Below, one piece after another: positions 1 through 13,035 of a stretch of DNA of 13,035 nucleotides. Under the pieces are notes generated by a model, which made no database searches, was not told where the DNA came from, and was given only the letters and a program-made list of their open reading frames with translations. Each line of letters opens with the position of its first letter. Position 1 is the first letter of the stretch. The DNA is from a virus (lineage: Duplodnaviria; Heunggongvirae; Uroviricota; Caudoviricetes): IMG/VR virus record IMGVR_UViG_2690316210_000016, positions 1 through 13,035 of that record; one strand, written 5' to 3'. A program made the position numbers and the translations under genes.

Positions 1-1230
1 ATGAGCAGAGCACTTAACAAACTGAGCGATACACAGCTGAGGAAAATCAACGGCACACCCGCCCAAAAAACAGCTTTTCTTAATGACGGTGGAAACCTGA
101 GCGTCAGGCATTCAACCAGCGGCCTTTTAACCTGGTATTTCACCTACAGGGCCGGAACGGGAAGGGGAGCACGACCGGAACGGATTAAGCTGGGAAATTA
201 TCCTGATCTGAGTCTGAAAGCTGCCAGGGAAAAAGCGGCACAGTGTCGCGCTTGGCTTGCTGAGGGGAAAAATCCACGTCATGAGATGAATTACACCGTA
301 CAGAAAGCGTTAAAGCCCGTAACGGTTGGCGATGCGCTTACCTACTGGCTTGAGTCTTACGTAAAGGAAAACCGCGTGGATTATGCCGCCCTGAAAAAGC
401 GCCTTAATAATCACGTAATACAGCACATTGGTGCTATGCCGCTGGATAAATGCGAGCTACGGCACTGGCTGGCCTGTTTTGACCAGGTGGCAAAGCGAAC
501 GCCTGTTACTGCCGGATTCTTGCTACAGACGTGCAAACAGGCGCTTAAGTTCTGCCGGAGGCGGCGCTATGCAATCAGCAACGTTCTTGATGATATGAGT
601 GTGGCGGACGTTGGGAAAAAACCGGATATAAGCGAGCGTGTCTTAAGCACCAAAGAACTTGGCGAATTATTGCAGGCACTGGACAAAAAAATATTTTCCC
701 CTTACTACGTCGCACTAATCCGCCTCCTGATTGTTTTCGGATGCCGGACGGTAGAACTGAGGTTATCGGAGATCAGCGAGTGGGATTTTACCGAAATGCT
801 CTGGACCGTGCCGAAAGAACACAGCAAAACGAAGGTGGCAATATTCCGGCCCATACCGGAAGCAATACTGCCGTTCGTCACGCAGCTGGTGGAGCAGAAC
901 AGGCACACGGGCTTATTGCTGGGGGAAGTGAAACAGGAAACAAGCGTGTCGCAGTACGGCAGATTAGCGCACAGGAGGCTAAAACACCCTCACTGGTCAC
1001 TGCATGACATCCGGCGCACCTTTACAACGATGCTGAACGATTTAGGCGTGGATCCTCACGTCGTGGAGCAGCTTACAGGTCATCAGATGCCAGGGATGCA
1101 ACGAGTCTATAACCATTCCCGTTATCTGGATGCGAAACGTGACGCGCTGGATATGTGGACGGAGCGGTTAGGGATACTGGCGGGAACACATGAAAACGTA
1201 ACCACATTGCCAATAGCCAGAGAAATATAA
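1..1230 (+). CDS. int: Tyrosine site-specific integrase (phage integrase family), 409 aa
   Basis: Full ORF from ATG at position 1. C-terminal region has the catalytic-domain pattern (HDIRRTF...GHQMPGMQRVYNHSRY, i.e. His/Arg box and a tyrosine near the end). N-terminal part resembles the arm-binding domain of P4-type integrases. Family assignment is from memory, no search run. Confidence 0.88.
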   Translation: MSRALNKLSDTQLRKINGTPAQKTAFLNDGGNLSVRHSTSGLLTWYFTYRAGTGRGARPERIKLGNYPDLSLKAAREKAAQCRAWLAEGKNPRHEMNYTVQKALKPVTVGDALTYWLESYVKENRVDYAALKKRLNNHVIQHIGAMPLDKCELRHWLACFDQVAKRTPVTAGFLLQTCKQALKFCRRRRYAISNVLDDMSVADVGKKPDISERVLSTKELGELLQALDKKIFSPYYVALIRLLIVFGCRTVELRLSEISEWDFTEMLWTVPKEHSKTKVAIFRPIPEAILPFVTQLVEQNRHTGLLLGEVKQETSVSQYGRLAHRRLKHPHWSLHDIRRTFTTMLNDLGVDPHVVEQLTGHQMPGMQRVYNHSRYLDAKRDALDMWTERLGILAGTHENVTTLPIAREI

Positions 1231-1260
1231 TTTTTTTTGCGATTTTTCAGGATGCGGACA

Positions 1261-1315
1261 ACGTGAAACAACGAGACACAACGACGAACAACAAGGAACA
1301 AAATGGAACAACGGG
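1261..1315. repeat. Five tandem ~10-11 bp GAACAAC-type repeats between int and alpA
   Basis: Direct reading: tgaaacaacga / gacacaacgac / gaacaacaag / gaacaaaatg / gaacaacggg, at roughly one helical turn spacing. A second CA-rich repetitive stretch (gacacaatcc gacacaaccc aacccaataatccaccc) lies at about 1513..1565. Confidence 0.4.
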
Positions 1316-1595
1316 TTAAAAATCAGCCATCGTAATAACCATTTGATTTTTATAGGTGTACTGTTTTTTTATACACTGGCGAATCACTCTTAAAAATATG
1401 TAAAAAAGGCGTAAAAGTAAAATTTTATGCCTTTGCATCATAATGAATTAAAAGAGTTTTTATTCTCATTCCCCCTGCTTCTGTAAAACGACCGCCGCCA
1501 GTGTTTGCCATTCCACAAACACCCTGACACAATCCGACACAACCCAACCCAATAATCCACCCAATGACTCTTTAAGAAACAACAAAGGGGGAATT

Positions 1596-1784
1596 GTGTT
1601 AAGCACAGATCGCTTTATACGTGAAAAAGAATGTCAGCAACTTACAGGCCTGAGCCGCTCATGTCGGTACCGCCTGGAAAAAGCCGGACAATTCCCATCA
1701 CGGCGTAAGCTGGGCGGTCGTTCCGTTGGCTGGTCTTTATCCGAAGTTCTGGCATGGAAGGACAGCTGCGAGGCAGTTCACTAA
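1596..1784 (+). CDS. alpA: AlpA-family small DNA-binding regulator / excisionase-like protein, 62 aa
   Basis: GTG start at 1596 preceded by aaaggggg. Translation (FIREKECQQLTGLSRSCRYRLEKAGQFPSRRKLGGRSVGWSLSEVLAWK) matches the AlpA/CP4-57 regulator HTH pattern. Its position just after int is typical of satellites and integrative elements. Confidence 0.8.
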   Translation: MLSTDRFIREKECQQLTGLSRSCRYRLEKAGQFPSRRKLGGRSVGWSLSEVLAWKDSCEAVH

Positions 1785-1836
1785 TCAGGCTGGCGGCACA
1801 CAGCCGCCACCCATCCACTAATACAGAGATCTAACC

Positions 1837-3261
1837 ATGAATACTGGATATTCTCCCGAACAAGGGCGGGGCTTCGTTCGTCCTGAAAAACAGAATCTGC
1901 AAAATTTTGCCGAAATTATTCCGGTTATTTCCGGCCTTACTGGCGGGAGTGAAACCAATATTGTTAACGCCAGAGCGTTGCAGATGTTTGATGATAAAAA
2001 GGGAGTAAATTTAACTTACACCCCTGACGGCAATCAGAATATGAGCATTATCTCTGAGTCAGGTTTCTACAAACTAATAAAAACAAAAAGCGCCCCGTTG
2101 CCGGAGCGCCTTTGTGAACAATTAACCTACTGCGCAAAAAATGAATCTGAGCAGTGGGATTATATCAACCATGTGGAGAAGCGCCACAATTGCCGAATAA
2201 CGGGCAAAACAAAGGCCACCCGCTACGGTGGCCCCTCGACACAAGCTACACGTTATCCCCAACGCATGAGCATTGCCAACAATGCCACATTTGCGGCTGG
2301 TGGGCAATGCAATCAGTCTGGTTCAGTTCGTTGCCATACCTGCAATGAGCGCTTTTCCCTGTACTCTTTAAGGAATTGCTCAAGGGCAAAAGCACATGGC
2401 GCGAATCTTTCTGATTCATGCTCTATCTTTCTGCGCCGTCTTTTCCGTGCCGGTGATAATGTTTTGGTCAATTCTTTATCGGTCATTGTGTTGTCCTGCA
2501 TAGCAATGCGCCGTAATACCTTACACCACGGCGCTGATGGTGATTACTCTGGTTCTTTGGTCTTGCGGCGCTGGAGTTCTTCACGTGCGACAGTGACGAG
2601 CTGCCCGATCTCCTCGGCGGCTTTGATTCCGAGTTTTTCCACCTGCGCCAGTGCATCGAGCGAAGAAACCAGGGGATTTTCTCCACTTCCTTCTGCCTGG
2701 CGCCGGGCGATCTCACCGCGTACAGCCGTAACTATAAAATTCGCTTTAGTTTCCCCTGGCTGTAGGGATGCCTCAATGCCACTCACTACTTCATGTGGAA
2801 ATCTGGCATTCAGTTGCTGTGACTTATTGTTAACAGAACTCCTGGACATGTTTGCACCTCCCATTAATAACGGGATGCAGTGTAATACAAAAGTGAATAC
2901 CAAAAAAGACTTGAAATGGTATTCACCTAAATGTAATGTGAATACCACAAGTGCTGATACATGCAATTCAGCAATTGAAACGACGAAGCCCCGCACTGTT
3001 GGAGCAGTAACGGGGCTTCTAACCACCAACGATAACGAGAGTATCGAGGTAGCTATGAGAAATCATACCACACACCCGCAAGGGCGGGACTCGCACAACC
3101 TGAATAAATACATCTGGCGTTTTATCGCCCTGAGCACTGCACAACCGCGCGTGATTACCATTGAGGCCACCAGCGAACAGGAAGCACGCCAGCAATCCCC
3201 GGCTGGCTGCGTGATGGTATTCGCTGCCCGTATTCGTCAGGAGGTGTGCCATGTGCAATAA
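1837..3261 (+). CDS. Questionable 474-codon ORF; only the first ~90 codons look protein-like (antirepressor / Bro-N-like segment)
   Basis: Residues ~50-85 (MFDDKKGVNLTYTPDGNQNMSIISESGFYKLIKTKSA) resemble the C-terminal half of a Bro-N/antirepressor domain, but the N-terminal half does not match well. From about nt 2150 onward the translation is Cys/Ser/Arg/Thr-rich and looks non-coding. The ORF also runs antisense through a well-supported minus-strand gene (2544..2849) and through a repeat-rich regulatory region. Probably a gene remnant plus a chance open frame. Confidence 0.25.
   Translation: MNTGYSPEQGRGFVRPEKQNLQNFAEIIPVISGLTGGSETNIVNARALQMFDDKKGVNLTYTPDGNQNMSIISESGFYKLIKTKSAPLPERLCEQLTYCAKNESEQWDYINHVEKRHNCRITGKTKATRYGGPSTQATRYPQRMSIANNATFAAGGQCNQSGSVRCHTCNERFSLYSLRNCSRAKAHGANLSDSCSIFLRRLFRAGDNVLVNSLSVIVLSCIAMRRNTLHHGADGDYSGSLVLRRWSSSRATVTSCPISSAALIPSFSTCASASSEETRGFSPLPSAWRRAISPRTAVTIKFALVSPGCRDASMPLTTSCGNLAFSCCDLLLTELLDMFAPPINNGMQCNTKVNTKKDLKWYSPKCNVNTTSADTCNSAIETTKPRTVGAVTGLLTTNDNESIEVAMRNHTTHPQGRDSHNLNKYIWRFIALSTAQPRVITIEATSEQEARQQSPAGCVMVFAARIRQEVCHVQ
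2544..2849 (-). CDS. Hypothetical small protein (102 aa), possible island regulator
   Basis: Minus-strand ATG (complement of cat at 2847..2849) sits 6 nt after a strong Shine-Dalgarno (GGGAGGTG on the minus strand). The longer upstream extension in the ORF track (to 3029) is hydrophobic junk, so the internal start is preferred. It faces away from the replication operon across operator-like repeats. No family recognised. Confidence 0.45.
   Translation of the reverse strand: MSRSSVNNKSQQLNARFPHEVVSGIEASLQPGETKANFIVTAVRGEIARRQAEGSGENPLVSSLDALAQVEKLGIKAAEEIGQLVTVAREELQRRKTKEPE
2881..3019. promoter_or_regulatory. Operator-like repeats (GTGAATACC direct and inverted) and a 9-bp-stem hairpin in the divergent intergenic region
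   Basis: GTGAATACC at 2893..2901 and 2938..2946, its inverse GGTATTCAC at 2918..2926; TGTAAT at 2881 and 2932. Hairpin GAAGCCCCG (2985..2993) / CGGGGCTTC (3011..3019) with no downstream T-tract. Lies between the minus-strand gene and the plus-strand operon starting at 3251. Confidence 0.35.
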
Positions 3262-3475
3262 CACCCGTCCGGACGCAGCCGCCGAAGCCATCATAACGCT
3301 AATGCATGCGCTGATTGATATTTCTGTTATTGCTGACAGGGCGCATAAACACGCAGTCAGAGAATCAGAATGCATCTTCCATTATTTAGCATTTGTGCAG
3401 CTAAAAGCCGATCAGGCACTGGATAAGGCCGGAAAAATTATCATGGCTGATGTGCAGGAGGTGCACCATGCATAA
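3251..3475 (+). CDS. Hypothetical protein, 74 aa
   Basis: ATG at 3251 preceded by AGGAGG (caggaggtgtgccATG). Its stop overlaps the start of the next ORF (atgcataa), indicating translational coupling. Confidence 0.55.
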   Translation: MCNNTRPDAAAEAIITLMHALIDISVIADRAHKHAVRESECIFHYLAFVQLKADQALDKAGKIIMADVQEVHHA

Positions 3476-3833
3476 CCTGTCAATTTCTGACCTTAACAGC
3501 ATTCAGTTTGACGAGAAATTTACCGGGCAGTTGCTGGTCAATGTGGAGAACGGGCGCATAGTGCGTAATTATCACCTGCCGGATGGTGCAATTGCCGGAA
3601 GCGTTGAAGCATTGCTGGAACTGGCGGAACGTGCGCGACTGATTAAGCCGTCAACGAGCCATCACGATGATGATCTGCATTTTACCGGATGTATGGTGAG
3701 TCACTACGAAAACGGCGTCGAGGTATCCTGCGAACGGCTGCGTGATGATTGCTGTTTCGGCACACTGCCGGAATTTATCGAGTTGCTGACCAGTTGCGGT
3801 TATCAGGTCATTCAGGGGGGTAAACATGCGTGA
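3468..3833 (+). CDS. Hypothetical protein, 121 aa
   Basis: ATG at 3468 preceded by AGGAGG (caggaggtgcaccATG). The ORF-track start at 3450 would place the SD inside the coding sequence, so 3468 is preferred. No recognisable domain. Confidence 0.55.
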   Translation: MHNLSISDLNSIQFDEKFTGQLLVNVENGRIVRNYHLPDGAIAGSVEALLELAERARLIKPSTSHHDDDLHFTGCMVSHYENGVEVSCERLRDDCCFGTLPEFIELLTSCGYQVIQGGKHA

Positions 3834-4059
3834 TGATCGTTTTAATTCCCTGAAACAGGAATTTTCCGGCGTTCCTGATGATGCGGCTGATGCGCTTTCG
3901 TCAATGCCAGAACTTATTAGAGCGGCTTTTTTCTTACTTTCCACGAGAGAATATAAATCAACGGGGCTTGATGTACTGAATATCGCCGCCGATTATGCGG
4001 AATATGTGGCAGAGGCGCGTTACAGAAGAAAATTTCCTGAGGATGTAAGCCATGCGTGA
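3826..4059 (+). CDS. Hypothetical protein, 77 aa
   Basis: ATG at 3826 after a GGGGGG run; start overlaps the previous stop. Acidic small protein, no family recognised. Confidence 0.5.
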   Translation: MRDDRFNSLKQEFSGVPDDAADALSSMPELIRAAFFLLSTREYKSTGLDVLNIAADYAEYVAEARYRRKFPEDVSHA

Positions 4060-4285
4060 TATTTACCACGAAACAATAGACCGCGCATTTCTTGCACTTT
4101 CTCACAGTGAAAACATGCTGGAAATATTGCGCATATGGCTTGAAACACTTGGCGACAATGAACGCGACAAACAAAAATCAAGAATTGCCACGGCATTAAT
4201 AACGCTTCTTGAGCCTGTAATAATGGAACTGCAAGAAATAGATCTATTGCACGACAGATATAAAGAACAGCACACCGGAGAATAA
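4052..4285 (+). CDS. Hypothetical protein, 77 aa
   Basis: ATG at 4052 after GAGGA; overlaps the previous stop. No family recognised. Confidence 0.5.
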   Translation: MRDIYHETIDRAFLALSHSENMLEILRIWLETLGDNERDKQKSRIATALITLLEPVIMELQEIDLLHDRYKEQHTGE

Positions 4286-4290
4286 AAATA

Positions 4291-4590
4291 ATGAAACTTA
4301 AATATTCTGGCTTAACTGCCAGTGGCAACACTCACCCTAAATTTACGCGCGGTGATATTTACCGCGACCAGTACGGCGGCACGGTAATGATTAAGGGCGT
4401 GGAAGAACGGCGTGTAACCTACCGCCGTGAAGGTTACGAATATGATTGCGTGATGCCTGTTTATCAGTTCCGGCGTGATTTTTCTCTGGTGCAGACCGCG
4501 CCGCATAACGTGCCCACCAGCAACGCCAGGGCACGGGCAAACATCCAGAAGCTGAAAACCATGATTAACGGATTCAGGGGTAAAAAATGA
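4291..4590 (+). CDS. Hypothetical protein, 99 aa
   Basis: ATG at 4291 after GGAGA; its stop overlaps the primase start (ATGA). No family recognised. Confidence 0.5.
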   Translation: MKLKYSGLTASGNTHPKFTRGDIYRDQYGGTVMIKGVEERRVTYRREGYEYDCVMPVYQFRRDFSLVQTAPHNVPTSNARARANIQKLKTMINGFRGKK

Positions 4591-6341
4591 AACTGGCACC
4601 GAACGTAAAACAGCAGTCACGCGGCATAAAACACAAAGGAACAGAAGTCATTATTTTTGCGGGTAGTGATGCCTGGGCACACGCGAAACAATGGCAGGAA
4701 CATGATGCGCGTATGGCCGGAGATAATGAGCCTCCTGTGTGGCTTGGGGAGCAGCAGTTATCAGAACTGGATAAGCTGCAAATTGTGCCGGAAGGCAGAA
4801 AATCCGTGCGCATATTCAGGGCCGGATATCTTGCGCCAGTAATGATAAAGGCGATTGGCCAGAAGCTGGCGGCGGCAGGCGTACAGGATGCAAATTTTTA
4901 CCCTGATGGTATGCACGGTCAGAAGGTGGAGAACTGGCGCGAATATCTGGCCCGTGAGCGCCAGAATCTTTCTGATGGTCTGGTCATTGAGCTTCCGGTA
5001 AAGCAAAAGGCGCAACTTTCGCAGATGGCGGACAGTGAGCGCGCGCAGCTGCTTGCCGATCGCTTTGATGGCGTTTGCGTACATCCTGAAAGTGAAATCG
5101 TTCACGTATGGCGCGGCGGGGTATGGTGTCCGGTCAGCACAATGGAACTTAGCCGCGAAATGGTGGCGATCTATTCAGAGCACAGGGCCACTTTCAGCAA
5201 GCGCGTAATCAATAACGCCGTGGAAGCGTTAAAAGTTATTGCCGAACCAATGGGCGAGCCGTCCGGCGATTTGCTGCCGTTCGCCAATGGTGCGCTTGAC
5301 CTGAAAACGGGGGAATTTTCCCCGCACACGCCGGAGAACTGGATCACCACGCACAACGGCATTGAGTACACGCCACCAGCACCCGGGGAGAACATCCGCG
5401 ATAACGCGCCAAACTTTCATAAATGGCTTGAGCACGCAGCCGGAAAAGACCCGCGCAAGATGATGCGTATATGTGCCGCGCTGTACATGATTATGGCGAA
5501 CCGGTACGACTGGCAGATGTTTATTGAGGCCACCGGAGACGGCGGGAGCGGTAAAAGTACATTCACACACATAGCCAGCCTTCTGGCAGGGAAACAAAAC
5601 ACGGTAAGCGCTGAAATGACATCGCTTGATGATGCTGGTGGGCGTGCGCAGGTTGTCGAGAGTCGTCTTATCGTCCTGGCTGACCAGCCGAAATATACAG
5701 GCGAAGGAACGGGCATCAAGAAAATCACGGGCGGCGACCCCGTGGAAATTAACCCGAAATATGAAAAGCGTTTCACGGCGGTAATCAGGGCGGTGGTGCT
5801 GGCGACCAACAACAACCCGATGATATTCACCGAACGGGCCGGAGGTGTGGCACGTCGTCGCGTGATTTTCCGTTTCGACAATATCGTCAGTGAGGCCGAA
5901 AAAGACAGGGAGCTACCGGAAAAGATTGCGGCTGAAATCCCTGTGATTATCCGCCGATTGCTGGCGAACTTTTCCGACCCTGAAAAGGCACGGGCTTTAC
6001 TCATTGAACAGCGTGACGGTGATGAAGCACTGGCGATAAAGCAGCAAACGGATCCGGTTATTGAGTTTTGCCAGTTCCTGAATTTTCTGGAGGAAGCGCG
6101 CGGCCTGATGATGGGTGGCGGTGGCGATTCAGTGAAGTACACGACCAGGAACAGCCTTTACCGCGTCTATCTGGCGTTTATGGCATACGCAGGCAGGAGC
6201 AAACCGCTAAACGTAAATGACTTTGGCAAGGCTATGAAGCCTGCCGCAAAAGTTTACGGACATGAATATATTACGCGGAAAGTTAAGGGGGTAACGCAGA
6301 CTAACGCAATAACAACAGACGAGTGCGACGCGTTTTTATAA
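4587..6341 (+). CDS. Replication initiator: P4-type primase C-terminal / SF3 helicase (D5-like NTPase) protein, 584 aa
   Basis: Walker A P-loop EATGDGGSGKSTF (nt ~5534..5557) followed by a Walker-B-like hydrophobic stretch ending in D (RLIVLADQ). Overall resemblance to the P4-alpha / PICI pri-rep NTPase domain, and an iteron array lies directly downstream. Family from memory, no search run. Confidence 0.82.
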   Translation: MKLAPNVKQQSRGIKHKGTEVIIFAGSDAWAHAKQWQEHDARMAGDNEPPVWLGEQQLSELDKLQIVPEGRKSVRIFRAGYLAPVMIKAIGQKLAAAGVQDANFYPDGMHGQKVENWREYLARERQNLSDGLVIELPVKQKAQLSQMADSERAQLLADRFDGVCVHPESEIVHVWRGGVWCPVSTMELSREMVAIYSEHRATFSKRVINNAVEALKVIAEPMGEPSGDLLPFANGALDLKTGEFSPHTPENWITTHNGIEYTPPAPGENIRDNAPNFHKWLEHAAGKDPRKMMRICAALYMIMANRYDWQMFIEATGDGGSGKSTFTHIASLLAGKQNTVSAEMTSLDDAGGRAQVVESRLIVLADQPKYTGEGTGIKKITGGDPVEINPKYEKRFTAVIRAVVLATNNNPMIFTERAGGVARRRVIFRFDNIVSEAEKDRELPEKIAAEIPVIIRRLLANFSDPEKARALLIEQRDGDEALAIKQQTDPVIEFCQFLNFLEEARGLMMGGGGDSVKYTTRNSLYRVYLAFMAYAGRSKPLNVNDFGKAMKPAAKVYGHEYITRKVKGVTQTNAITTDECDAFL

Positions 6342-6356
6342 TTTTTTGTAATTGCT

Positions 6357-6580
6357 GTCTACCCTGTCTACCTGAGTAAAGAAAAATACATTTAATTCAG
6401 TGCATTAAGTTAGGTAGATAGCCTTTTTTTACTGTCTACCCACTATCTACCCTCTCTACCTGATTTTACCTGAATCAGACAGGGAGGTAGACACGGGGTA
6501 GATAGTGGATAAAAGCACTCTACCCCGCTGAAATCCGCGCCATTACTGGCATGAGGGCCACTAAGGTAGATAAGGTAGAC
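6357..6580. repeat. Iteron array, putative replication origin
   Basis: About 11 copies of the heptamer GTCTACC / GGTAGA(C/T) within 225 bp. Mostly GTCTACC-type in the left cluster (6357, 6366, 6434, 6445, 6454) and GGTAGAC/T-type in the right cluster (6486, 6497, 6565, 6574), with one GGTAGAT at 6413 and one CTCTACC at 6518. An AT-rich stretch (6374..6412) lies inside the left cluster. Confidence 0.7.
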
Positions 6581-6629
6581 AAGGGGAGGCACAACTCAAA
6601 ACTTTTTAAACGAGGGGGTAAAAATAAAT

Positions 6630-6908
6630 ATGCACACTTCAGGGAAATTTAATAAATCACTCAAAAAACGCAGAGACAGAACAGAACCGAAATATCGCGC
6701 GTTAGACATGACAGAGCACGCTTTAAAGGTGGCAATCAGAACGATAGACCGACACGTAGGGGAAGGATACGCGAAGGAACATCCCGACCTGATAAGCGCA
6801 TTCATGACCACAGCAGCGGCAAACTTTGCCACGCTGACAGAACGGGAGATTGCCGAAGCGGAACAGGTAACAACCATCAACGTTAAAACCGGAGAGGTGG
6901 AATCATGA
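6630..6908 (+). CDS. Hypothetical protein, 92 aa
   Basis: ATG at 6630 preceded by GAGGGGG; its stop overlaps the start of the SSB-like gene (ATGA). No family recognised. Confidence 0.5.
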   Translation: MHTSGKFNKSLKKRRDRTEPKYRALDMTEHALKVAIRTIDRHVGEGYAKEHPDLISAFMTTAAANFATLTEREIAEAEQVTTINVKTGEVES

Positions 6909-7315
6909 CAGCACAGATAGCAGCTTACGGGCGGCTGGTGGACGACCCGCAGGTAAAACAGACCAGCAAGGGCACACCAATGACGCTGGCACGTATGGCG
7001 GTATCGTTGCCATGTAGTCAGGCGCAGGATGGGCAGGCTACGTTATGGCTATCGGTGATGGCATTTGGTAAGCAGGCCGACTTCCTGGCTAAACATCAAA
7101 AAGGCGACGTTGCCAGCGTATCCGGCACGATGCAGGTCAGCCAGTGGACCGGACAGAACGGGGAAACGCGGCAGGGTTATCAGGTTATTGCAGACAGCGT
7201 AATCAGTGCCCGTGCGGCACGTCCTGGCGGGAACAGACGCAAAACCACAGGCACACAGGGTAATCAGCCACCAGCGGGAGGCGATGACCCTTACGGTGAT
7301 GATATTCCGTTCTGA
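6905..7315 (+). CDS. ssb: Single-stranded DNA-binding protein homolog (short, 136 aa)
   Basis: OB-fold-like N-terminal region, a Gly/Pro/Gln-rich linker, and a C-terminal acidic tip GDDIPF that corresponds to the conserved DDDIPF tail of bacterial SSB. Confidence 0.78.
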   Translation: MTAQIAAYGRLVDDPQVKQTSKGTPMTLARMAVSLPCSQAQDGQATLWLSVMAFGKQADFLAKHQKGDVASVSGTMQVSQWTGQNGETRQGYQVIADSVISARAARPGGNRRKTTGTQGNQPPAGGDDPYGDDIPF

Positions 7316-7325
7316 GGGGGTGAGG

Positions 7326-7574
7326 ATGGTACATGACCGCATAGCGGAGGAACTCGAGGCAAAAGGCTTTTACCGGAGGGCGGCGGCACGATGGGGTGAA
7401 GTCATGCAACTGGTGGAGACAGACAAGGAACGGCATCAGGTTACGATGCGACGGCTGGAATGTTCCAGGAAGGCACAGAGGCCACCGGAGCCGCCAACGG
7501 AGAACTATGCAGACCTGAGAAATGCAGTAAATCGCACTTACGCAGACATGGGGCTGAGCAAATTAGCAGAGTAG
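7326..7574 (+). CDS. PerC/Pch-family-like small transcriptional activator, 82 aa
   Basis: ATG at 7326 after GGGGG, in frame with the ORF-track entry 7206..7574, whose upstream part overlaps ssb and is probably not translated. The motif IAEELEAKGFYRRAAARWGEVM resembles the conserved N-terminal motif of PerC/Pch regulators as I recall it. Confidence 0.5.
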   Translation: MVHDRIAEELEAKGFYRRAAARWGEVMQLVETDKERHQVTMRRLECSRKAQRPPEPPTENYADLRNAVNRTYADMGLSKLAE

Positions 7575-7597
7575 GAATACCAGAACCACACCACACA

Positions 7598-7619
7598 GCC
7601 GGAGCAATCCGGCTTTTTT
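7598..7619 (+). terminator. Rho-independent terminator
   Basis: GCCGGA-GCAA-TCCGGC hairpin followed by TTTTTT. Confidence 0.6.
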
Positions 7620-7631
7620 GCGCCCAAAAAA

Positions 7632-7668
7632 AGCCCGATAAGGTCAGAGGTGGCTTATCGGGCTTTTG
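7632..7668. terminator. Second hairpin terminator, probably bidirectional
   Basis: Perfect 11-bp stem AGCCCGATAAG / CTTATCGGGCT with an 11-nt loop, flanked by an A-run upstream and TTTT downstream. Confidence 0.6.
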
Positions 7669-7744
7669 CATATGAGGTTTTTTGGTGCACTGACACACAT
7701 GATCGGGATAATCATTTCATAATTTGCAACGCAACTCAATATCA

Positions 7745-7797
7745 TTGCACAAAATGCAATCATGATTATAATCATAACTGGATGAACATCCAGTTAT
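7745..7797 (+). promoter_or_regulatory. Sigma70-type promoter of the capsid module overlapped by two perfect palindromic operators
   Basis: TTGCAC (7745..7750), 16-bp spacer, TATAAT (7767..7772). Perfect 14-bp palindrome ATGATTATAATCAT (7762..7775) overlaps the -10. Perfect 24-bp palindrome ATAACTGGATG-AA-CATCCAGTTAT (7774..7797) covers the predicted transcription start. Confidence 0.55.
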
Positions 7798-7828
7798 GAT
7801 TTTTTAAGTCAAAGAGGAATTTCTTACT

Positions 7829-8035
7829 ATGGCTGAAGAGAAAAAAGGCGGTGTTTCGGTGTACATAAGCCCCGACATCGTGAAGGCGCTCAAGGAACGC
7901 CACCAGCAGAACGTAAAAGCAGGCATTGCGGCAGGACTTGATCCGCTGGCGATGGTTGAGCCGTCAACAGGCTGGCAGGTACGCGCCTATTTACGCGCGG
8001 CGCTGGGTATGAATCAGGTTCACGGGGGTGAATAA
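7829..8035 (+). CDS. Hypothetical protein, 68 aa, first gene of the capsid module
   Basis: ATG at 7829 after AAGAGGA; stop overlaps the capsid gene start (TAATG). No family recognised. Confidence 0.55.
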   Translation: MAEEKKGGVSVYISPDIVKALKERHQQNVKAGIAAGLDPLAMVEPSTGWQVRAYLRAALGMNQVHGGE

Positions 8036-9090
8036 TGACAGTAAAAGCAATGGCACTTAACACTAACCAGCTTTTTGCGTACCTGAATCGCGGGGATATT
8101 GCGGAATTTAAATTCAGTCCGCTGTTTACCACGCTGTTTTTCCCGAACGTGGCGACATTCAGCACGCAAAACATCATGCTGGATACCCTGGACATTGAAG
8201 AAGTCACCATGTCGGCGTTTTGTTCGCCTATGGTGGGTAGCCAGGTTCAGCGCGATAAAGGGTACGAAACCAGCACGATTAAACCTGGCTACATGAAGCC
8301 AAAGCACGAAATCGATCCAACGAAAACCATCATGCGCATGGCTGGAGAAGATCCGGCACAGCTTAACGACCCTACCTATCGCCGTATGCGCCTGATTACT
8401 GGCAATATGCGCCGCCAGATAAACGCCATAAAAGCGCGCGTGGAATGGCTGGCGGTAAATGCGGTAACGACCGGAAAAAACATCATTGAAGGCGAAGGCA
8501 TAGAGCGCTATGAAATCGACTGGAAGATACCGGAAAAAAACATCATAGAGCAGGCCGACGGGAAAAAATGGTCAGAGCAGGACAAAGAAACCCACGATCC
8601 AATCTATGATATCGAACTATACGCCGATCAGGCTGGTTGCCCCGCAAACGTCATGATTATGGGCGCTGAGGTATGGCGAACGTTACGCAGCTTTAAAAAA
8701 TTCCGTGAGCTGTACGATCTTTCCCGTGGTTCAGAGTCCGCCGCAGAGCTGGCCTGTAAAAACCTGGGCGAAGTGGTGAGCTTTAAAGGCTATCTGGGCG
8801 ATATTGCCCTTATCGTCTATTCCGGCAAATACACTGACAGCGACGGCACAGAAAAATATTTCCTTGAGCCTGATTTGCTTGTCCTGGGCAACACCAACAA
8901 TAAAGGGCTGGTGGCCTATGGTGCGATTATGGATCAGGACGCAGTAAGAACGGGCGCAACGCAAAACATGTTTTACCCGAAAAACTGGATTGAGGACGGC
9001 GATCCGGCGATTGAGTACGTGCAGACGCACAGCGCACCGCAGCCGGTTCCGGCAGATATTCGCAAATTTGTTACCGTCAAAATTGGTTAA
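8035..9090 (+). CDS. Major capsid protein, lambda gpE-like (HK97 fold family), 351 aa
   Basis: Multiple blocks match lambda gpE as recalled: KPGYMKPKHEIDP vs TPGYVKPKHEVNP; DPTYRRMRLITGNMR vs DPAYRRRRIIMQNMR; VSFKGYLGDIALIVYSGKY vs VSYKGMYGDVAIVVYSGQY; LLVLGNTNNKGLVAYGAIMDQDA vs TMVLGNTQARGLRTYGCIQDADA; YPKNWIEDGDPAIEY vs YPKNWVTTGDPAREF. Length is similar to gpE (341 aa). Confidence 0.9.
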   Translation: MTVKAMALNTNQLFAYLNRGDIAEFKFSPLFTTLFFPNVATFSTQNIMLDTLDIEEVTMSAFCSPMVGSQVQRDKGYETSTIKPGYMKPKHEIDPTKTIMRMAGEDPAQLNDPTYRRMRLITGNMRRQINAIKARVEWLAVNAVTTGKNIIEGEGIERYEIDWKIPEKNIIEQADGKKWSEQDKETHDPIYDIELYADQAGCPANVMIMGAEVWRTLRSFKKFRELYDLSRGSESAAELACKNLGEVVSFKGYLGDIALIVYSGKYTDSDGTEKYFLEPDLLVLGNTNNKGLVAYGAIMDQDAVRTGATQNMFYPKNWIEDGDPAIEYVQTHSAPQPVPADIRKFVTVKIG

Positions 9091-9101
9091 CGGGGGATTC
9101 T

Positions 9102-9437
9102 ATGGACACTCCATACATTGAGTTATTTGCAGGCAGTCAGCAGGTCGCCACGACGCTGGTACATTTTGCCGCTGATGCTGGCGTTATTCAGGAATTTACC
9201 CCGCTGATGCTGGCGGACAATGGCGAGTTTAAGCCGTGGGATGGTAAGGAATCTGGCAAGGCTGTTTATCTGACCTCGTACCCTGTGGACACGTCAAAGC
9301 AGAAATCAGCACAGTGTTACAAGACGGGGATATTCAATATTGCCGCCGTTAACTGGCCTGAGAGCGTCGACACCGATGCGAAAAAATGCGCCGCCTTTGC
9401 GGGTTCCGGCGTATCCGTTCAGCCGCTGGCCCGATAA
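9102..9437 (+). CDS. Head decoration protein, lambda gpD-like, 111 aa
   Basis: Matches lambda gpD (110 aa) as recalled: TPLMLADNGEFKPWDG vs TPLMLDTSSRKLVAWDG; CYKTGIFNIAAVNWPESVDTDAKKCAAFAGSGVSV vs [35 protein letters not shown]. Preceded by GGGGGAT. Confidence 0.85.
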   Translation: MDTPYIELFAGSQQVATTLVHFAADAGVIQEFTPLMLADNGEFKPWDGKESGKAVYLTSYPVDTSKQKSAQCYKTGIFNIAAVNWPESVDTDAKKCAAFAGSGVSVQPLAR

Positions 9438-9449
9438 GCAGGGGGAACG

Positions 9450-9863
9450 ATGGCAACGAATGAAAGCATCATGACGCTACCGCTGGCGAGTAAATTTAAA
9501 GCCGAAGCGCGGGCAATGGCTGACAGAGGTTTATCAACCTATGAGGCCGTATATCAACTAAACAAACTGGAAGAGCAGGACAAGCCGCGCGCTGATGCGA
9601 TTATGGCGCTTCATGAGCATAAAGACTATCAGCCGCTGTTGCGTGCAATGGCAAACGTGCCTTGTATCGATGTTGGTACGGCTAAAAGCATCCTTAGCAT
9701 GACCATAGAGCAGGAACGTCCGAAGGTTGCGCCGGAACTTACCGCAGCCTTTGAAAACTTTATGGACATGCACAGCCCGCAAGCCGTATCAGCTGGCATG
9801 GCATACGATGGCAGAAACCAGGGCGATGACGGCGACATCGATCGCATACTGAAAACCATCTGA
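9450..9863 (+). CDS. Hypothetical protein, 137 aa, last gene of the capsid module
   Basis: ATG at 9450 after AGCAGGGGGAAC. No similarity to lambda FI/FII that I can recognise. Confidence 0.55.
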   Translation: MATNESIMTLPLASKFKAEARAMADRGLSTYEAVYQLNKLEEQDKPRADAIMALHEHKDYQPLLRAMANVPCIDVGTAKSILSMTIEQERPKVAPELTAAFENFMDMHSPQAVSAGMAYDGRNQGDDGDIDRILKTI

Positions 9864-9869
9864 GACAAG

Positions 9870-9891
9870 GCCGGAGAAATCCGGCTTTTTT
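9870..9891 (+). terminator. Rho-independent terminator
   Basis: GCCGGA-GAAA-TCCGGC hairpin followed by TTTTTT; nearly identical to the terminator at 7598..7619. Confidence 0.6.
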
Positions 9892-9892
9892 A

Positions 9893-9957
9893 CGGGTCCT
9901 TCCTGGAATTATGGCCCGTTACGGGGCGGCGACCTCGCGGGTTTTCGCTATTTATGA
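9893..9957 (+). other. cos site copy A: lambda-type cosQ-cosN junction with only the first ~22 bp of cosB
   Basis: Contains GTTACG-GGGCGGCGACCT-CGCGGGTTTTCGCTATTTATGA, matching the lambda end junction (12-nt cohesive end GGGCGGCGACCT at 9924..9935, recalled from the lambda genome). The preceding CGGGTCCTTCCTGG resembles the lambda right end ACGGGTCCTTTCCGG. No R-type repeats follow before the Nu1-like gene. Confidence 0.8.
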
Positions 9958-10024
9958 CGTTTTCCCGTGAAGGTGACACCACCACCACTTGATTAATATT
10001 TAACCATGCAGTTAAGGTAACATT

Positions 10025-10459
10025 ATGATTGATAAAGCTTGTTTTGTAAGTCAGCAGGAAATAGCTGAACATTTCAAGGTTAACAGAACCACTATTCGCG
10101 CATGGACCAAACAGGGGATGCCGTATCTTAATGCGGATCGCGGAAAGTCTGGCGGTTATCACATCGGGCATACATTGCTTTGGTCTTCAGGTAAAAGCCG
10201 TCTTGAGGCCATCAGATATCACGTAGAAACCAGTGCGCTGGAAAAAATTATGTTTGCCAGGCTGCTTTCATCTGAGCGTGACGAGTACTCCAGTGAAGAA
10301 ACAGAACATCGATTTGATGAAGGTTTGCAGATTTACGGCTATTCACCGGAAGATGTGAGCAAGGCACGAAATAAAATGGCTGGCTTTCTGGCTGGGTGGC
10401 GTCATGCCGTAAGCGTTCGCCGTGCCAGCATGGAGCAATCAGCCGATACAGAACAGTAA
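10025..10459 (+). CDS. Small terminase subunit homolog (lambda gpNu1-like N-terminal winged-HTH domain), 144 aa
   Basis: VSQQEIAEHFKVNRTTIRAWTKQGMPYLNADRGKSGG aligns with lambda Nu1 VNKKQLADIFGASIRTIQNWQEQGMPVLRGGGKGN. Shorter than Nu1 (181 aa), and the C-terminal half is unrelated. No large terminase subunit gene is present in the window. Confidence 0.72.
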   Translation: MIDKACFVSQQEIAEHFKVNRTTIRAWTKQGMPYLNADRGKSGGYHIGHTLLWSSGKSRLEAIRYHVETSALEKIMFARLLSSERDEYSSEETEHRFDEGLQIYGYSPEDVSKARNKMAGFLAGWRHAVSVRRASMEQSADTEQ

Positions 10460-10527
10460 AGCCGATAACTTGTTAATCACTCGCAGCAATGCATGTGATT
10501 TGTGCACACTTTCGGTTAACTGGTTCG

Positions 10528-10705
10528 ATGTCCGGTTTTAGTGTCTGTTTTTTGCGCATGTCCGGTTCATGGAAAGCATGTTTTTATATTTTTCATATGG
10601 TTAACTTGCAGAGAAACCGGACATGGATCCCGAAAAATTTTCATAAATAGTGAAAACGCGCGAGGTCGCCGCCCCGTAACGGGCCATAATTCCAGGAAGG
10701 ACCCG
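10528..10705 (-). other. cos site copy B (inverted): cosQ-cosN plus a complete cosB-like region with three R-like repeats and an AT-rich tract
   Basis: Read on the minus strand: cosQ-like at 10675..10705, cosN (AGGTCGCCGCCC on plus) at 10663..10674, then TATTTATGAAAATTTTCGGG, matching lambda TATTTATGAAAATTTTCCGG. R-like decamers ATGTCCGGTT at 10528..10537 and 10558..10567 and the inverse AACCGGACAT at 10615..10624, with an AT-rich tract at 10570..10612. This mirrors the lambda cosN-R3-I1-R2-R1 layout but with a different repeat sequence. Confidence 0.75.
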
Positions 10706-10738
10706 ACGACACCAGACTATCAGAACGATGGGGGCACA

Positions 10739-11020
10739 ATGACAGAAGCCGAAATACTGCGATTAATCCGCCGCGTTGCCGGAATCAGCCAGCAGGCCGA
10801 CGAACAGACCACGCAGCCGGACAGCGTGACCGCCGAAAATTATGTTCGTGTGGTTGCTGAGATGATTCGCCGTAATGGTATCCAGCTTAATGATGTGGAT
10901 ATGCGCAACATACGGATCCGCGTTCTTGAAATGCTGGCCTACAATCGCCGCGTGGCACTGTATCGGGAAACGGAGAAAATTACGTACCACTGGAAGAAGC
11001 CGGAGCGGTTGCGGCGGTAA
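10739..11020 (+). CDS. Hypothetical protein, 94 aa, distal to cos
   Basis: Start chosen at ATG 10739 (GGGGG upstream). The ORF-track start at 10541 would translate through cos copy B. No family recognised. Confidence 0.45.
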   Translation: MTEAEILRLIRRVAGISQQADEQTTQPDSVTAENYVRVVAEMIRRNGIQLNDVDMRNIRIRVLEMLAYNRRVALYRETEKITYHWKKPERLRR

Positions 11021-11070
11021 CTGGTTGATATTTTCGAAATTCGCCAGCGGCGAACATCGGGGAAACCAGC

Positions 11071-11187
11071 CTAACCCGTTGATATTTTCGGGAACCTCAA
11101 ATTGAGGAGGTCGGAAACATAACCCGTCATATTCTGGATGCTGATAATTACCACGCAGCCCATTAAGGCCTAACCCGTTGATTCTTC
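11071..11187. repeat. Three direct repeats of TAACCCGT(T/C)(G/A)AT at ~48-bp spacing
   Basis: ctaacccgttgatattttcg (11071), cataacccgtcatattctgg (11119), cctaacccgttgattcttcc (11168); also ttgatattttcg at 11024. Confidence 0.4.
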
Positions 11188-11193
11188 CACAAT

Positions 11194-11356
11194 CCCCCAT
11201 TGGGGGAGGCTGGGCGGCCTGCTGTGGGCTTTTCCACCATTGGTGGAAAGGCGCACATCTGGATCATCATTACGGTGATCAAGGGTATGTAAAACCCACC
11301 AGCCTGATTGACATTTAACCGGAAAAAAGCCAGGTAGCCCCATTATGGGGATCCCC
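11194..11356. repeat. Cluster of GC-rich palindromes with a CCATTGG-type core
   Basis: CCCCCA-T-TGGGGG (11194..11206), TTTCCACCA-T-TGGTGGAAA (11231..11249), CCCCAT-T-ATGGGG (11338..11350) overlapping GGGGATCCCC (11347..11356). Confidence 0.4.
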
Positions 11357-11574
11357 ATATCGACATTAACGCCCCTCATGAATTGGCGCGCTTCCCCCTG
11401 GAAAGATGACCCGCCTGTATATTTCTTGTGTCTATTTGTTCCACGTTGTTTCATACAGTGCAACGATCGGTGTAGTTAATGGTGTAGTCAATTTGCGATT
11501 TTTAGCACTTTTTGCAGTGCAAATCATTTAATTAAATCAATGACTTGCCTTGATGTAGTGATAAAAGGACATAT

Positions 11575-13035
11575 TTATTCATCTTTCGGCGCAGAATGCT
11601 GGCGACCAAAAATCACCTCCATCCGCGCACCGCCCAGCATGCTCTCTCCGGCGACGATTTTACCCTCATATTGCTCGGTGATTTCGCGGGCTACCGCCAG
11701 CCCTACACCTTGCCCAGGGCGTAAAGTATCAACCCGTTGACCACGGTCGAAAATGACCTCTCGCTTGCTTAATGGAATACCGGGGCCATCATCCTCGACC
11801 ACAATATAGAGATGCTCGTCGGTTTGCCTTGCAGAAATTTCGACAAACTCGAGGCAATATTTACAGGCATTATCCAGCACGTTGCCCATCACCTCGACAA
11901 AATCGTTCTGCTCACCGACAAAGCTGATCTCTGGCGAAATATCGAGAGAGATATTGACCCCTTTGCGTTGATACACTTTGTTCAGCGCTGAGGTGAGATT
12001 GTCCAGCAGTGGGGCGACCGGATGCAGCTCGCGGCTGAGCAATGTCCCGCCGCGCATACTGGCACGATGCAGGTAGTAGCCAATTTGCTGTGAAATGCGG
12101 CTGATTTGCTCCAGCATTACCGGCTCAGCATCACTGACGCTCATCTTTTCACTACGCAGAGAACGCAGCGTACTTTGCAGCACCGCCAGTGGCGTTTTCA
12201 GACTATGGGTCAGGTCGGTGAGCGTCGTACGGTATTTGTCGTAACGTTCGCGTTCACTTTTTAACAATCGGTTCAGGTTTCGTACCAGACTGGTCAGTTC
12301 TCGCGTTGTGGCTGGATTGAGCAATTCGCGGTTATGTTCTTCCAGTTCGCGGACTTCTTTTGCCAGGGCTTCGATGGGGCGTAAACTCCACCAGGCGGCG
12401 ACCCACAGCAGCGGGATCACTAACAGCAGATTGGCTGAGAGCACATAGATAAACCAGCTCCAGACCATATAGGAACTTTTTAGCTCCACCGGAATGGTAT
12501 CCACCACCACAATGGTTAATTTTGGCATCCGCGATGTTGCCGGGTAGACGTTTACTGCCACCGAGTGGGTCATCTCCGCGTCGTCATCATCTTCCCGCAC
12601 TTCCTGCAACTGTTGCTGTATCGAATGATCTCCACTCAGCAAGAGGCTGGTATCGTTAACATCCGCTTCAATTTCATGAAAACCATTCGATTTCAGCCAG
12701 TCAGGCTGGATCATCTTCATCAGCCAGGGCACGTCACGTTGCGCCCATAAAAGCTGCCCGTTCTCATCATAAATTAGCGTCATGGTGGGGCTTTGCTTGT
12801 CGATATTTTCGGGTAACTCGACATGCAACTTATTGTTTTCCCACTTCGCAAGGGTATAGAACAGATTGCTCTCGCCACGTAACAGCCGAAACGTAGTTTT
12901 ATCGAAACTGACGCTATAACCGATCAGCGCGACCATTCCGTAGGCAAGCGAAAGCACCAGTACTACCGCAGCCGTTGCCAACAGAAAACGTACCCGCAGC
13001 GAGAGCGGGAAAAAAAGACGCAGTAATTTTTTCAT
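11575..13035 (-). CDS. phoQ: Sensor histidine kinase PhoQ, 486 aa, complete
   Basis: Translation matches E. coli PhoQ as recalled, including the periplasmic acidic patch EDDDDAE, the H-box HSLKTPL and the C-terminal ATP-binding domain. The start codon is the last three bases of the window. Confidence 0.93.

Follow-up and report, generated by a model that had tools for sequence, protein, structure and literature searches.

A Nu1-like gene next to the cos site of an E. coli phage-inducible island encodes RppA, and the inverted second cos site of the island resembles that of PhiR12-type phages

Introduction

Which function should be assigned to a protein that begins like the small terminase Nu1 of phage lambda, if no large terminase gene accompanies it? 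This question is raised by an ORF at 10025..10459 (+ strand, ATG start, 144 aa) in a stretch of viral DNA of 13,035 nt, hereafter the window (positions 1 to 13,035 of the IMG/VR record IMGVR_UViG_2690316210_000016). The ORF is present exactly as the original prediction had described it. That prediction offered two roles for the encoded protein: it could redirect the small terminase (TerS) of a helper phage to the cos site of the island, as the Rpp proteins of E. coli phage-inducible chromosomal islands (PICIs) do, or it could be a small terminase of swapped specificity that still docks onto the helper large terminase (TerL, gpA). It also held that homology to Rpp could not be decided from the sequence. 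Here we compare the protein, its cos sites and the island that carries them with sequence collections, complete E. coli genomes and the published experiments on PICI packaging.

Results

The ORF is identical in all of its 144 residues to WP_000565609.1 of E. coli CFT073, and the DNA that runs from cosN through the gene to the second cos site differs from CFT073 in a single base (C at cos bp 41). A phmmer search against PDB chains matched the crystal structures of RppC (6HLK/6HN7) at E=5.3e-31 over residues 2–125, which covers both halves of the protein, with a measured identity of 44%; the published figures for RppA, the product of c1503, are 144 residues and 43.65% identity to RppC (PMC6739421). 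Table S1 of that paper lists AAN79972.1 as the accession of CFT073 RppA, and the RppA sequence printed in its supplementary Figure S1C equals the window protein over the first 50 residues, the part that is cleanly readable. The published primers for c1503 and c1504-07::cat find exact matches in the window at 10177–10231 and 10409–10468, and the gene order found here fits the numbers c1499 and c1500 that PMC6092414 gives to the capsid and decoration genes. Moreover, every residue that was mutated in PMC6739421 is present at its published position, namely R21 and T22 in helix α2 of the N-terminal winged helix-turn-helix (HTH), L51 for heterodimerisation with TerS and F121 for homodimerisation; R25, K29 and K41 are found as well, and the part that R21, T22 and these residues play has been demonstrated (PMC6739421, PMC9026076). 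Because gene order, length and identity figures, Figure S1C, Table S1, the primers and the mutated residues all agree, the ORF is c1503/RppA, and we found no sequence evidence against this assignment. The product of the gene at 10025..10459 is thus almost certainly RppA ('redirecting phage packaging') from a PICI of the EcCICFT073 type, with full-length homology to the RppA/RppB/RppC family. Membership in that family is settled by 100% identity to a characterized protein together with E=5e-31 to a homolog of solved structure (6HLK), so that what the original prediction had called undecidable from sequence is decided trivially by database comparison.

RppA is the founding Rpp protein (Fillol-Salom 2019, Mol Cell 75:1020), and the present finding is therefore a rediscovery. 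Papers from 2018 to 2022 already describe its identity, structure class and mechanism, and the window represents one more copy that adds little to them. The role of the protein looked open from the letters because RppA scores under the cut-off of every Pfam and NCBIfam model in a profile search. As the RefSeq label of the protein is still 'hypothetical protein' and the family models stay below their cut-offs, readers who work from sequence are bound to rediscover it.

The likeness to Nu1, which the original prediction had placed in the N-terminal winged-HTH region including the GMP...GK segment, is real, and it is confined to the first ~55–70 residues. Pairwise BLASTP aligned full-length lambda Nu1 with residues 8–71 of RppA (E=3e-6), phmmer aligned the lambda TerS chains of the PDB, including 1J9I and 6HN7_B, with residues 6–57 (E about 0.08–0.2), and PHROG 57 'terminase small subunit' matched residues 7–47 (E=3.9e-8). 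The 'QGMP...GK' segment is kept, reading QGMPYLNADRGK in RppA and QGMPVLRGGGKG in Nu1. RppA thus carries a Nu1-type winged-HTH DNA-binding domain at its N-terminus, and for RppC the structural equivalence of this domain to the Nu1 type has been shown in the literature (PMC9026076). Past residue ~71 neither the phmmer nor the BLASTP alignments contain any similarity to Nu1, so that no counterpart of the Nu1-type C-terminal oligomerisation/TerL-binding region is found, and RppA is 37 residues shorter than Nu1 (144 vs 181 aa); the C-terminal half is indeed shorter and unrelated, as had been proposed. The Pfam model Phage_Nu1 (PF07471) reaches 14.7 bits over residues 8–40 only, under its cut-off of 30. 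In the comparison against Nu1 and Rpp families, which had been suggested as a check, the match to RppC (E=5e-31) spans both halves of the protein, and Phage_Nu1 stays below threshold.

A cognate large terminase gene does not adjoin rppA. With lambda gpA as the query, tblastn against the six frames of the window gave a best E of 2.4, the domain search found no terminase family among the main ORFs of the window, and there is none in the annotation of the CFT073 counterpart; the original prediction was therefore right that the window holds no TerL gene. The gene that follows, c1504-like and located at 10739..11020 (+), encodes a 93-aa protein that falls into PHROG 1561, of unknown function (E=2e-53).

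Published experiments describe what RppA does. Expression of c1503 stops plaque formation by lambda and phi80, and deletion of c1503 brings the plaques back; RppA homodimerises and binds helper TerS, and phages that escape carry terS mutations (PMC6739421). The L51D mutant does not bind TerS and the F121R mutant does not dimerise, and both have lost interference and island transfer (PMC6739421). In the presence of RppA, transfer of a plasmid with a phage cos falls and transfer of a plasmid with the island cos1 rises, and cosB swaps, a phage 80 chimera with the island cosB and the R21A/T22A mutant assigned the specificity to cosB1 and helix α2 (PMC6739421). Deletion of helper terS abolishes island transfer, and helper TerS is thus essential (PMC6092414). 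Murialdo and Feiss argue that it is helper TerS that brings in TerL, as Rpps are without a TerL-binding end (PMC9026076). For the CFT073 protein, which is identical to that of the window, TerS binding, reduction of lambda plaques and lowered island transfer upon deletion have all been published as positive (PMC6739421).

In the mechanism that follows from these experiments, the trigger is the development of a lambda-, phi80- or 21-type helper phage, upon which RppA dimers bind the helper small terminase (TerS/Nu1). The N-terminal winged HTH of RppA mimics the DNA-binding domain of TerS, and its C-terminal helices provide a coiled-coil contact. The resulting Rpp–TerS complex is blind to phage cosB, which blocks phage packaging, and recognises the island cosB1 through helix α2 of RppA (R21, T22). 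Its TerS part still recruits the helper large terminase, so that the island cosN is cut and island concatemers are packaged in phage heads. Each of these steps has been shown in published experiments on the identical protein, and our tools establish the identity, the position close to cos, the key residues and the absence of TerL. We infer that the island variant of the window behaves like that of CFT073. An Rpp-like role, one of the two originally offered, is thus borne out by 144/144 identity to RppA and by homology to RppC over both halves (E=5e-31, 44%).

The other role offered, a specificity-swapped small terminase that replaces helper Nu1, binds the island cosB itself and recruits gpA directly, would account for the resemblance of the N-terminal domain to the DNA-binding domain of Nu1, for the location of rppA at the Nu1 position relative to cos, and for the name 'terminase small subunit' that some Rpp relatives bear in RefSeq. 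It is contradicted, however, by the loss of island transfer upon deletion of helper terS (PMC6092414) and by the loss of function of L51D, which is unable to bind TerS (PMC6739421). These two results exclude a replacement of TerS that docks on gpA, and the sequence comparison agrees with them: the C-terminal half of Nu1 with its TerL-binding domain remains unaligned, RppA is too short by 37 residues, Phage_Nu1 scores under its threshold, and the conserved TerL-binding segment was not found among Rpps by Murialdo and Feiss (PMC9026076). We regard a swapped small terminase as very improbable.

That the protein is an ordinary HTH regulator of the island, be it a transcription factor or excisionase-like, with no part in packaging, is still less probable. 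The generic Pfam models HTH_28, HTH_17 and MerR_1 do match RppA at E 0.002–0.01, all under their cut-offs, and the DNA-binding domain has a published structure similar to that of MetR/LysR-group transcription activators (PMC9026076). Against such a regulator stand the identity to RppA, whose packaging function has been demonstrated, the full-length homology to RppC with the C-terminal dimerisation helices included, and the conserved position of the gene at cos bp 102; the published RppA phenotypes and the RppC homology rule it out as the main role.

The cos site upstream of the gene agrees with RppA as the redirecting protein of this island. The cosQ side of cos1 (9893..9923, +) contains GGGTCCT as in lambda cosQ, as placed by a fixed-register alignment to the lambda right end, and is followed by cosN (9924..9935, +; GGGCGGCGACCT), which is identical to the lambda cohesive end at 12 of 12 positions. 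Between cosN and the gene lies cosB1 (9936..10024, +), island-specific and RppA-responsive, whose function was established by swapping cosB and by the phage 80 chimera (PMC6739421). The ATG of rppA falls on cos bp 102, which is the figure published for PICI-C, and the gene thus begins 102 bp after a lambda-identical cosN. At the R3 position, cosB1 and lambda share 3 of 18 bases, and no phage in the collection searched matches cosB1 beyond about bp 50. An island cos with phage-like cosQ/cosN and a non-phage cosB hence lies directly upstream of rppA. The proposed R3-PICI (PMC9026076) occupies bp 48–65 (9971–9988, +) and contains the conserved ACCACCACC at bp 55–63 (9978–9986). A strict IHF consensus pattern has no match in cos1, in cos2 or in lambda itself, and is therefore uninformative.

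Two kinds of difference separate this cos1 from that of CFT073, and both lie outside the proposed Rpp-binding segment at bp 48–65. Position 9964 of the window (cos bp 41) is C, and it is T in CFT073 and in nine other related islands that were compared. On the cosQ side (9893–9923), about 8 positions differ from CFT073, and the sequence is identical to the arm that contains cos2. As the cosQ side of cos1 matches the cos2 arm and is unlike CFT073, its sequence suggests gene conversion between the two arms.

When the whole island is compared with E. coli CFT073, 91% of its length aligns at 97.8% identity, and in both cases the insertion lies between roxA and phoQ; the window therefore holds a close variant of EcCICFT073. 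It encodes an integrase, AlpA, a D5_N/DUF5906 primase and SSB and lacks a terminase, as befits a PICI. Upstream of cos1 on the + strand (8035..9863) lie a gene for a lambda gpE-like major capsid protein (c1499, 8035–9090; Pfam Phage_cap_E, E=2e-52), one for a gpD-like decoration protein (c1500, 9102–9437; HDPD, E=2.5e-17) and c1501 (9450–9863). The 137-aa product of c1501 has a weak similarity (E=5e-9) to a head-maturation-protease PHROG, in the C-terminal part of the latter, and may therefore be scaffold-like. The island thus encodes capsid-type genes and yet is reportedly packaged in phage-sized heads, and deletions of c1499 and c1500 are reported to have no phenotype.

A terminator-like hairpin, GGCCGGAGAAAUCCGGC followed by U6, is located at 9868..9891 (+) between the stop codon of c1501 and cos1. 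RNA folding gave it -17.8 kcal/mol (z = -3.07 vs shuffles), and a simple consensus scan did not list it. Because the hairpin is strong, rppA may escape read-through from the capsid genes. A promoter scan of the region found 5 sites, not significantly more than the 2.3 ± 1.8 expected, and no convincing promoter in cosB1.

Elsewhere in the window, three direct repeats of an AAC(C/T)(C/G)GTTGAT(A/T)(T/C)T-type motif are located at 11018, 11072 and 11171 (spacing 54 and 99 nt; 11018–11209). They stand 3′ of the last island gene and close to the phoQ end of the island, whose last DNA reaches up to phoQ (11575–13035, −), and may represent arm-type sites of the integrase at attR. An ORF of 474 aa at 1837–3261, which runs through a region that differs from CFT073, has no family match, and small YlcI/YnfO-like genes are annotated in relatives on the strand opposite to it. 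It is probably not a gene, although few ORFs of this length would be expected by chance.

The second cos site, which is the published cos2 of EcCICFT073 (supplementary Figure S1A), lies downstream of rppA on the opposite strand. Its cosN (10663..10674, −; bp 1 = 10674) is again identical to lambda at 12 of 12 positions, with the cosQ side at 10675..10705 (−) and cosB2 at 10528..10662 (−; cos2 bp 13–147). Three exact copies of ATGTCCGGT are found in cosB2, at bp 51–59 (10616–10624), bp 109–117 (10558–10566) and bp 139–147 (10528–10536). The two cos sites form the arms of an inverted repeat (I1; 9893–9970 and 10628–10705, 78 nt, 90% complementary, with a perfect stretch of 47 nt) that brackets rppA. 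Each arm contains cosQ–cosN, with the cosQ sides making up the outer parts of arms 1 and 2, and cos1 and cos2 thus face each other. Neither 'inverted' nor 'orientation' occurs as a word in the 2019 paper, its supplements included, or in the main text of the 2022 paper.

In the published work, cos2 is functional, non-essential and unresponsive to RppA, and its deletion raised lambda-mediated transfer (PMC6739421, PMC6092414). Both island cosB regions were called 'completely divergent' from those of phages, and the question was asked why some PICIs have two cos sites (PMC6739421). For cos2 we found a counterpart in the phages PhiR12_1 to PhiR12_5, which it matches over 179 nt at 93% (10528–10705, − strand; PhiR12_1 3001–3179). 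Over bp 1–147 there are four mismatches to PhiR12_1, and the similarity stops abruptly after bp 147. The ATGTCCGGT repeats at bp 51 (+), 109 (−) and 139 (−) have the same positions and orientations in the island and in PhiR12_1. In lambda, R3 (bp 49) and R2 (bp 109) are likewise inverted with respect to each other, with an AT-rich spacer between them, and R1 is at bp 151. In PhiR12_1 the counterpart of cos2 lies between the lysis genes and Nu1-A-W-B, and by this placement it is the genuine cos of that phage. By these alignments cos2 is not divergent from all phages, and is a near-exact copy of the cos of PhiR12-type lambdoid phages.

Only the C-terminal 92 residues of PhiR12 TerS align with lambda Nu1 (46% identity), which indicates that its DNA-binding domain differs from that of lambda. 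Of 5,426 complete E. coli genomes, 1,153 (21%) contain the PhiR12-type junction of cosB and terS, and a literature search found no paper describing the PhiR12 phages. By way of cos2, helpers of the PhiR12 type may be able to package the island directly and independently of RppA.

As cos1 and cos2 are inverted with respect to each other, the cassette between them can flip. We represented a flip of the segment between the arms by a synthetic junction and searched for it in complete genomes, in which it was found as one full-length piece. Both flipped junctions are present in 15 complete E. coli genomes, and the native left junction is present in 68, which makes 83 complete genomes together; the exact inversion is also found in further assemblies, with RppA intact and identical. 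In strain WP4-S17-ESBL-08, the window segment 9893–10705 has its counterpart in reverse orientation (99.9%) between flanks that are collinear, and the annotated RppA, identical in sequence, lies on the opposite strand. The exact protein is indexed in 3,664 blocks, and when its contexts were looked up independently, 3 of 10 were flipped, of which one strain (KGu016) was already among the 15.

The left flanks of flipped and native islands can be identical (0 differences in 1,858 nt). The four flipped islands that were examined share one phoQ background (0–1 differences in 1,965 nt), and their nearest native relative is 1 + 3 SNPs away, which makes a single recent flip the economical explanation. 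From these comparisons the inversion of the cassette probably stems from one recent event. A recurrent, switch-like inversion was considered and rejected, as the flank comparison fits the single event, and we do not claim a programmed switch. Flips were seen only on backbones with a perfect repeat of 47 nt, as in the window, and none on those with 25 nt, as in CFT073. Homologous recombination could be the route, or terminase could cut both cosN sites and release a fragment with identical cohesive ends.

Nine further matches to the flipped left junction turned out not to be flips of the intact cassette. Four of the nine were fetched and examined, and they have a different architecture that is devoid of rpp. 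These islands are inserted at yejO, thiM or clpS and retain two inverted cos arms with the cosN sites about 535 bp apart (cosN is exact in three of the four loci); a cos2-type cosB lies beside the forward cos, accompanied by a remnant of 22 codons from the 3′-end of rpp and by AT-rich filler. At least two of the hosts also carry a PhiR12-type prophage, examples being S1-CAM-02-A and NCTC9112.

Discussion

The gene that looked like a small terminase without its partner is rppA. The findings on cos2 lead us to a reading in which the island has two packaging routes, instead of one route and a relic: cos1 would serve lambda-, phi80- and 21-type helpers through RppA, cos2, as a complete cosQ–cosN–cosB acquired from PhiR12-type phages, would serve helpers of that type, and the cassette between them could flip. 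Related islands without rpp, in which a cos2-type cosB is all that is kept, would on this reading do no more than mimic a cos. We give this reading as a whole an even chance. If cos2 is a working copy of the cos of a very common prophage, these islands exploit two unrelated terminase specificities, and if it works their range of helpers is wider, which bears on the spread of virulence islands in E. coli. The PhiR12 origin of cos2, the flip of the cassette and the rpp-less relatives were not found in the literature that we searched.

The closest known system is EcCICFT073 itself. Its RppA (c1503, AAN79972.1 / WP_000565609.1) is the same protein on the same type of island at the same roxA–phoQ site, and the intergenic and cos2 DNA are the same too. 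The window island differs from it in the region from alpA to the primase, in a backbone that matches at 97.8% over 91%, and in its perfect inverted repeat of 47 nt, compared with 25 nt in CFT073. RppC of EcCIEC2733.1 (6HLK; 6HN7, the complex with the N-terminal domain of lambda TerS) is homologous over the DNA-binding and the dimerisation halves, and R21, T22, R25, K29, K41 and L51 are conserved between the two proteins. RppC is longer, however (153 aa vs 144), and residues of helix α2 and the wing differ (Q30 vs R30, R39 vs K39); Murialdo and Feiss propose that such differences between RppA and RppC may tune the specificity for cosB (PMC9026076).

Lambda gpNu1 (PF07471; 1J9I, 7LW0) shares with RppA the N-terminal winged helix-turn-helix and the QGMP...GK segment, and its gene stands just downstream of cosQ–cosN–cosB, as rppA does. 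Unlike gpNu1, RppA shows no similarity after residue ~71, has neither the TerL-binding C-terminus nor an adjoining terL, recognises another cosB, and acts only as a partner of helper TerS, never as its substitute. The pac islands of staphylococci arrive at the same outcome with TerS(S) plus Ppi: as with Rpp, island DNA is packaged preferentially and packaging of the helper is blocked. In SaPIs, which package by the headful mechanism, this takes two proteins, one of them a true homolog of TerS and the other a separate inhibitor, whereas Rpp combines both jobs in one protein and acts at cos sites (PMC6739421).
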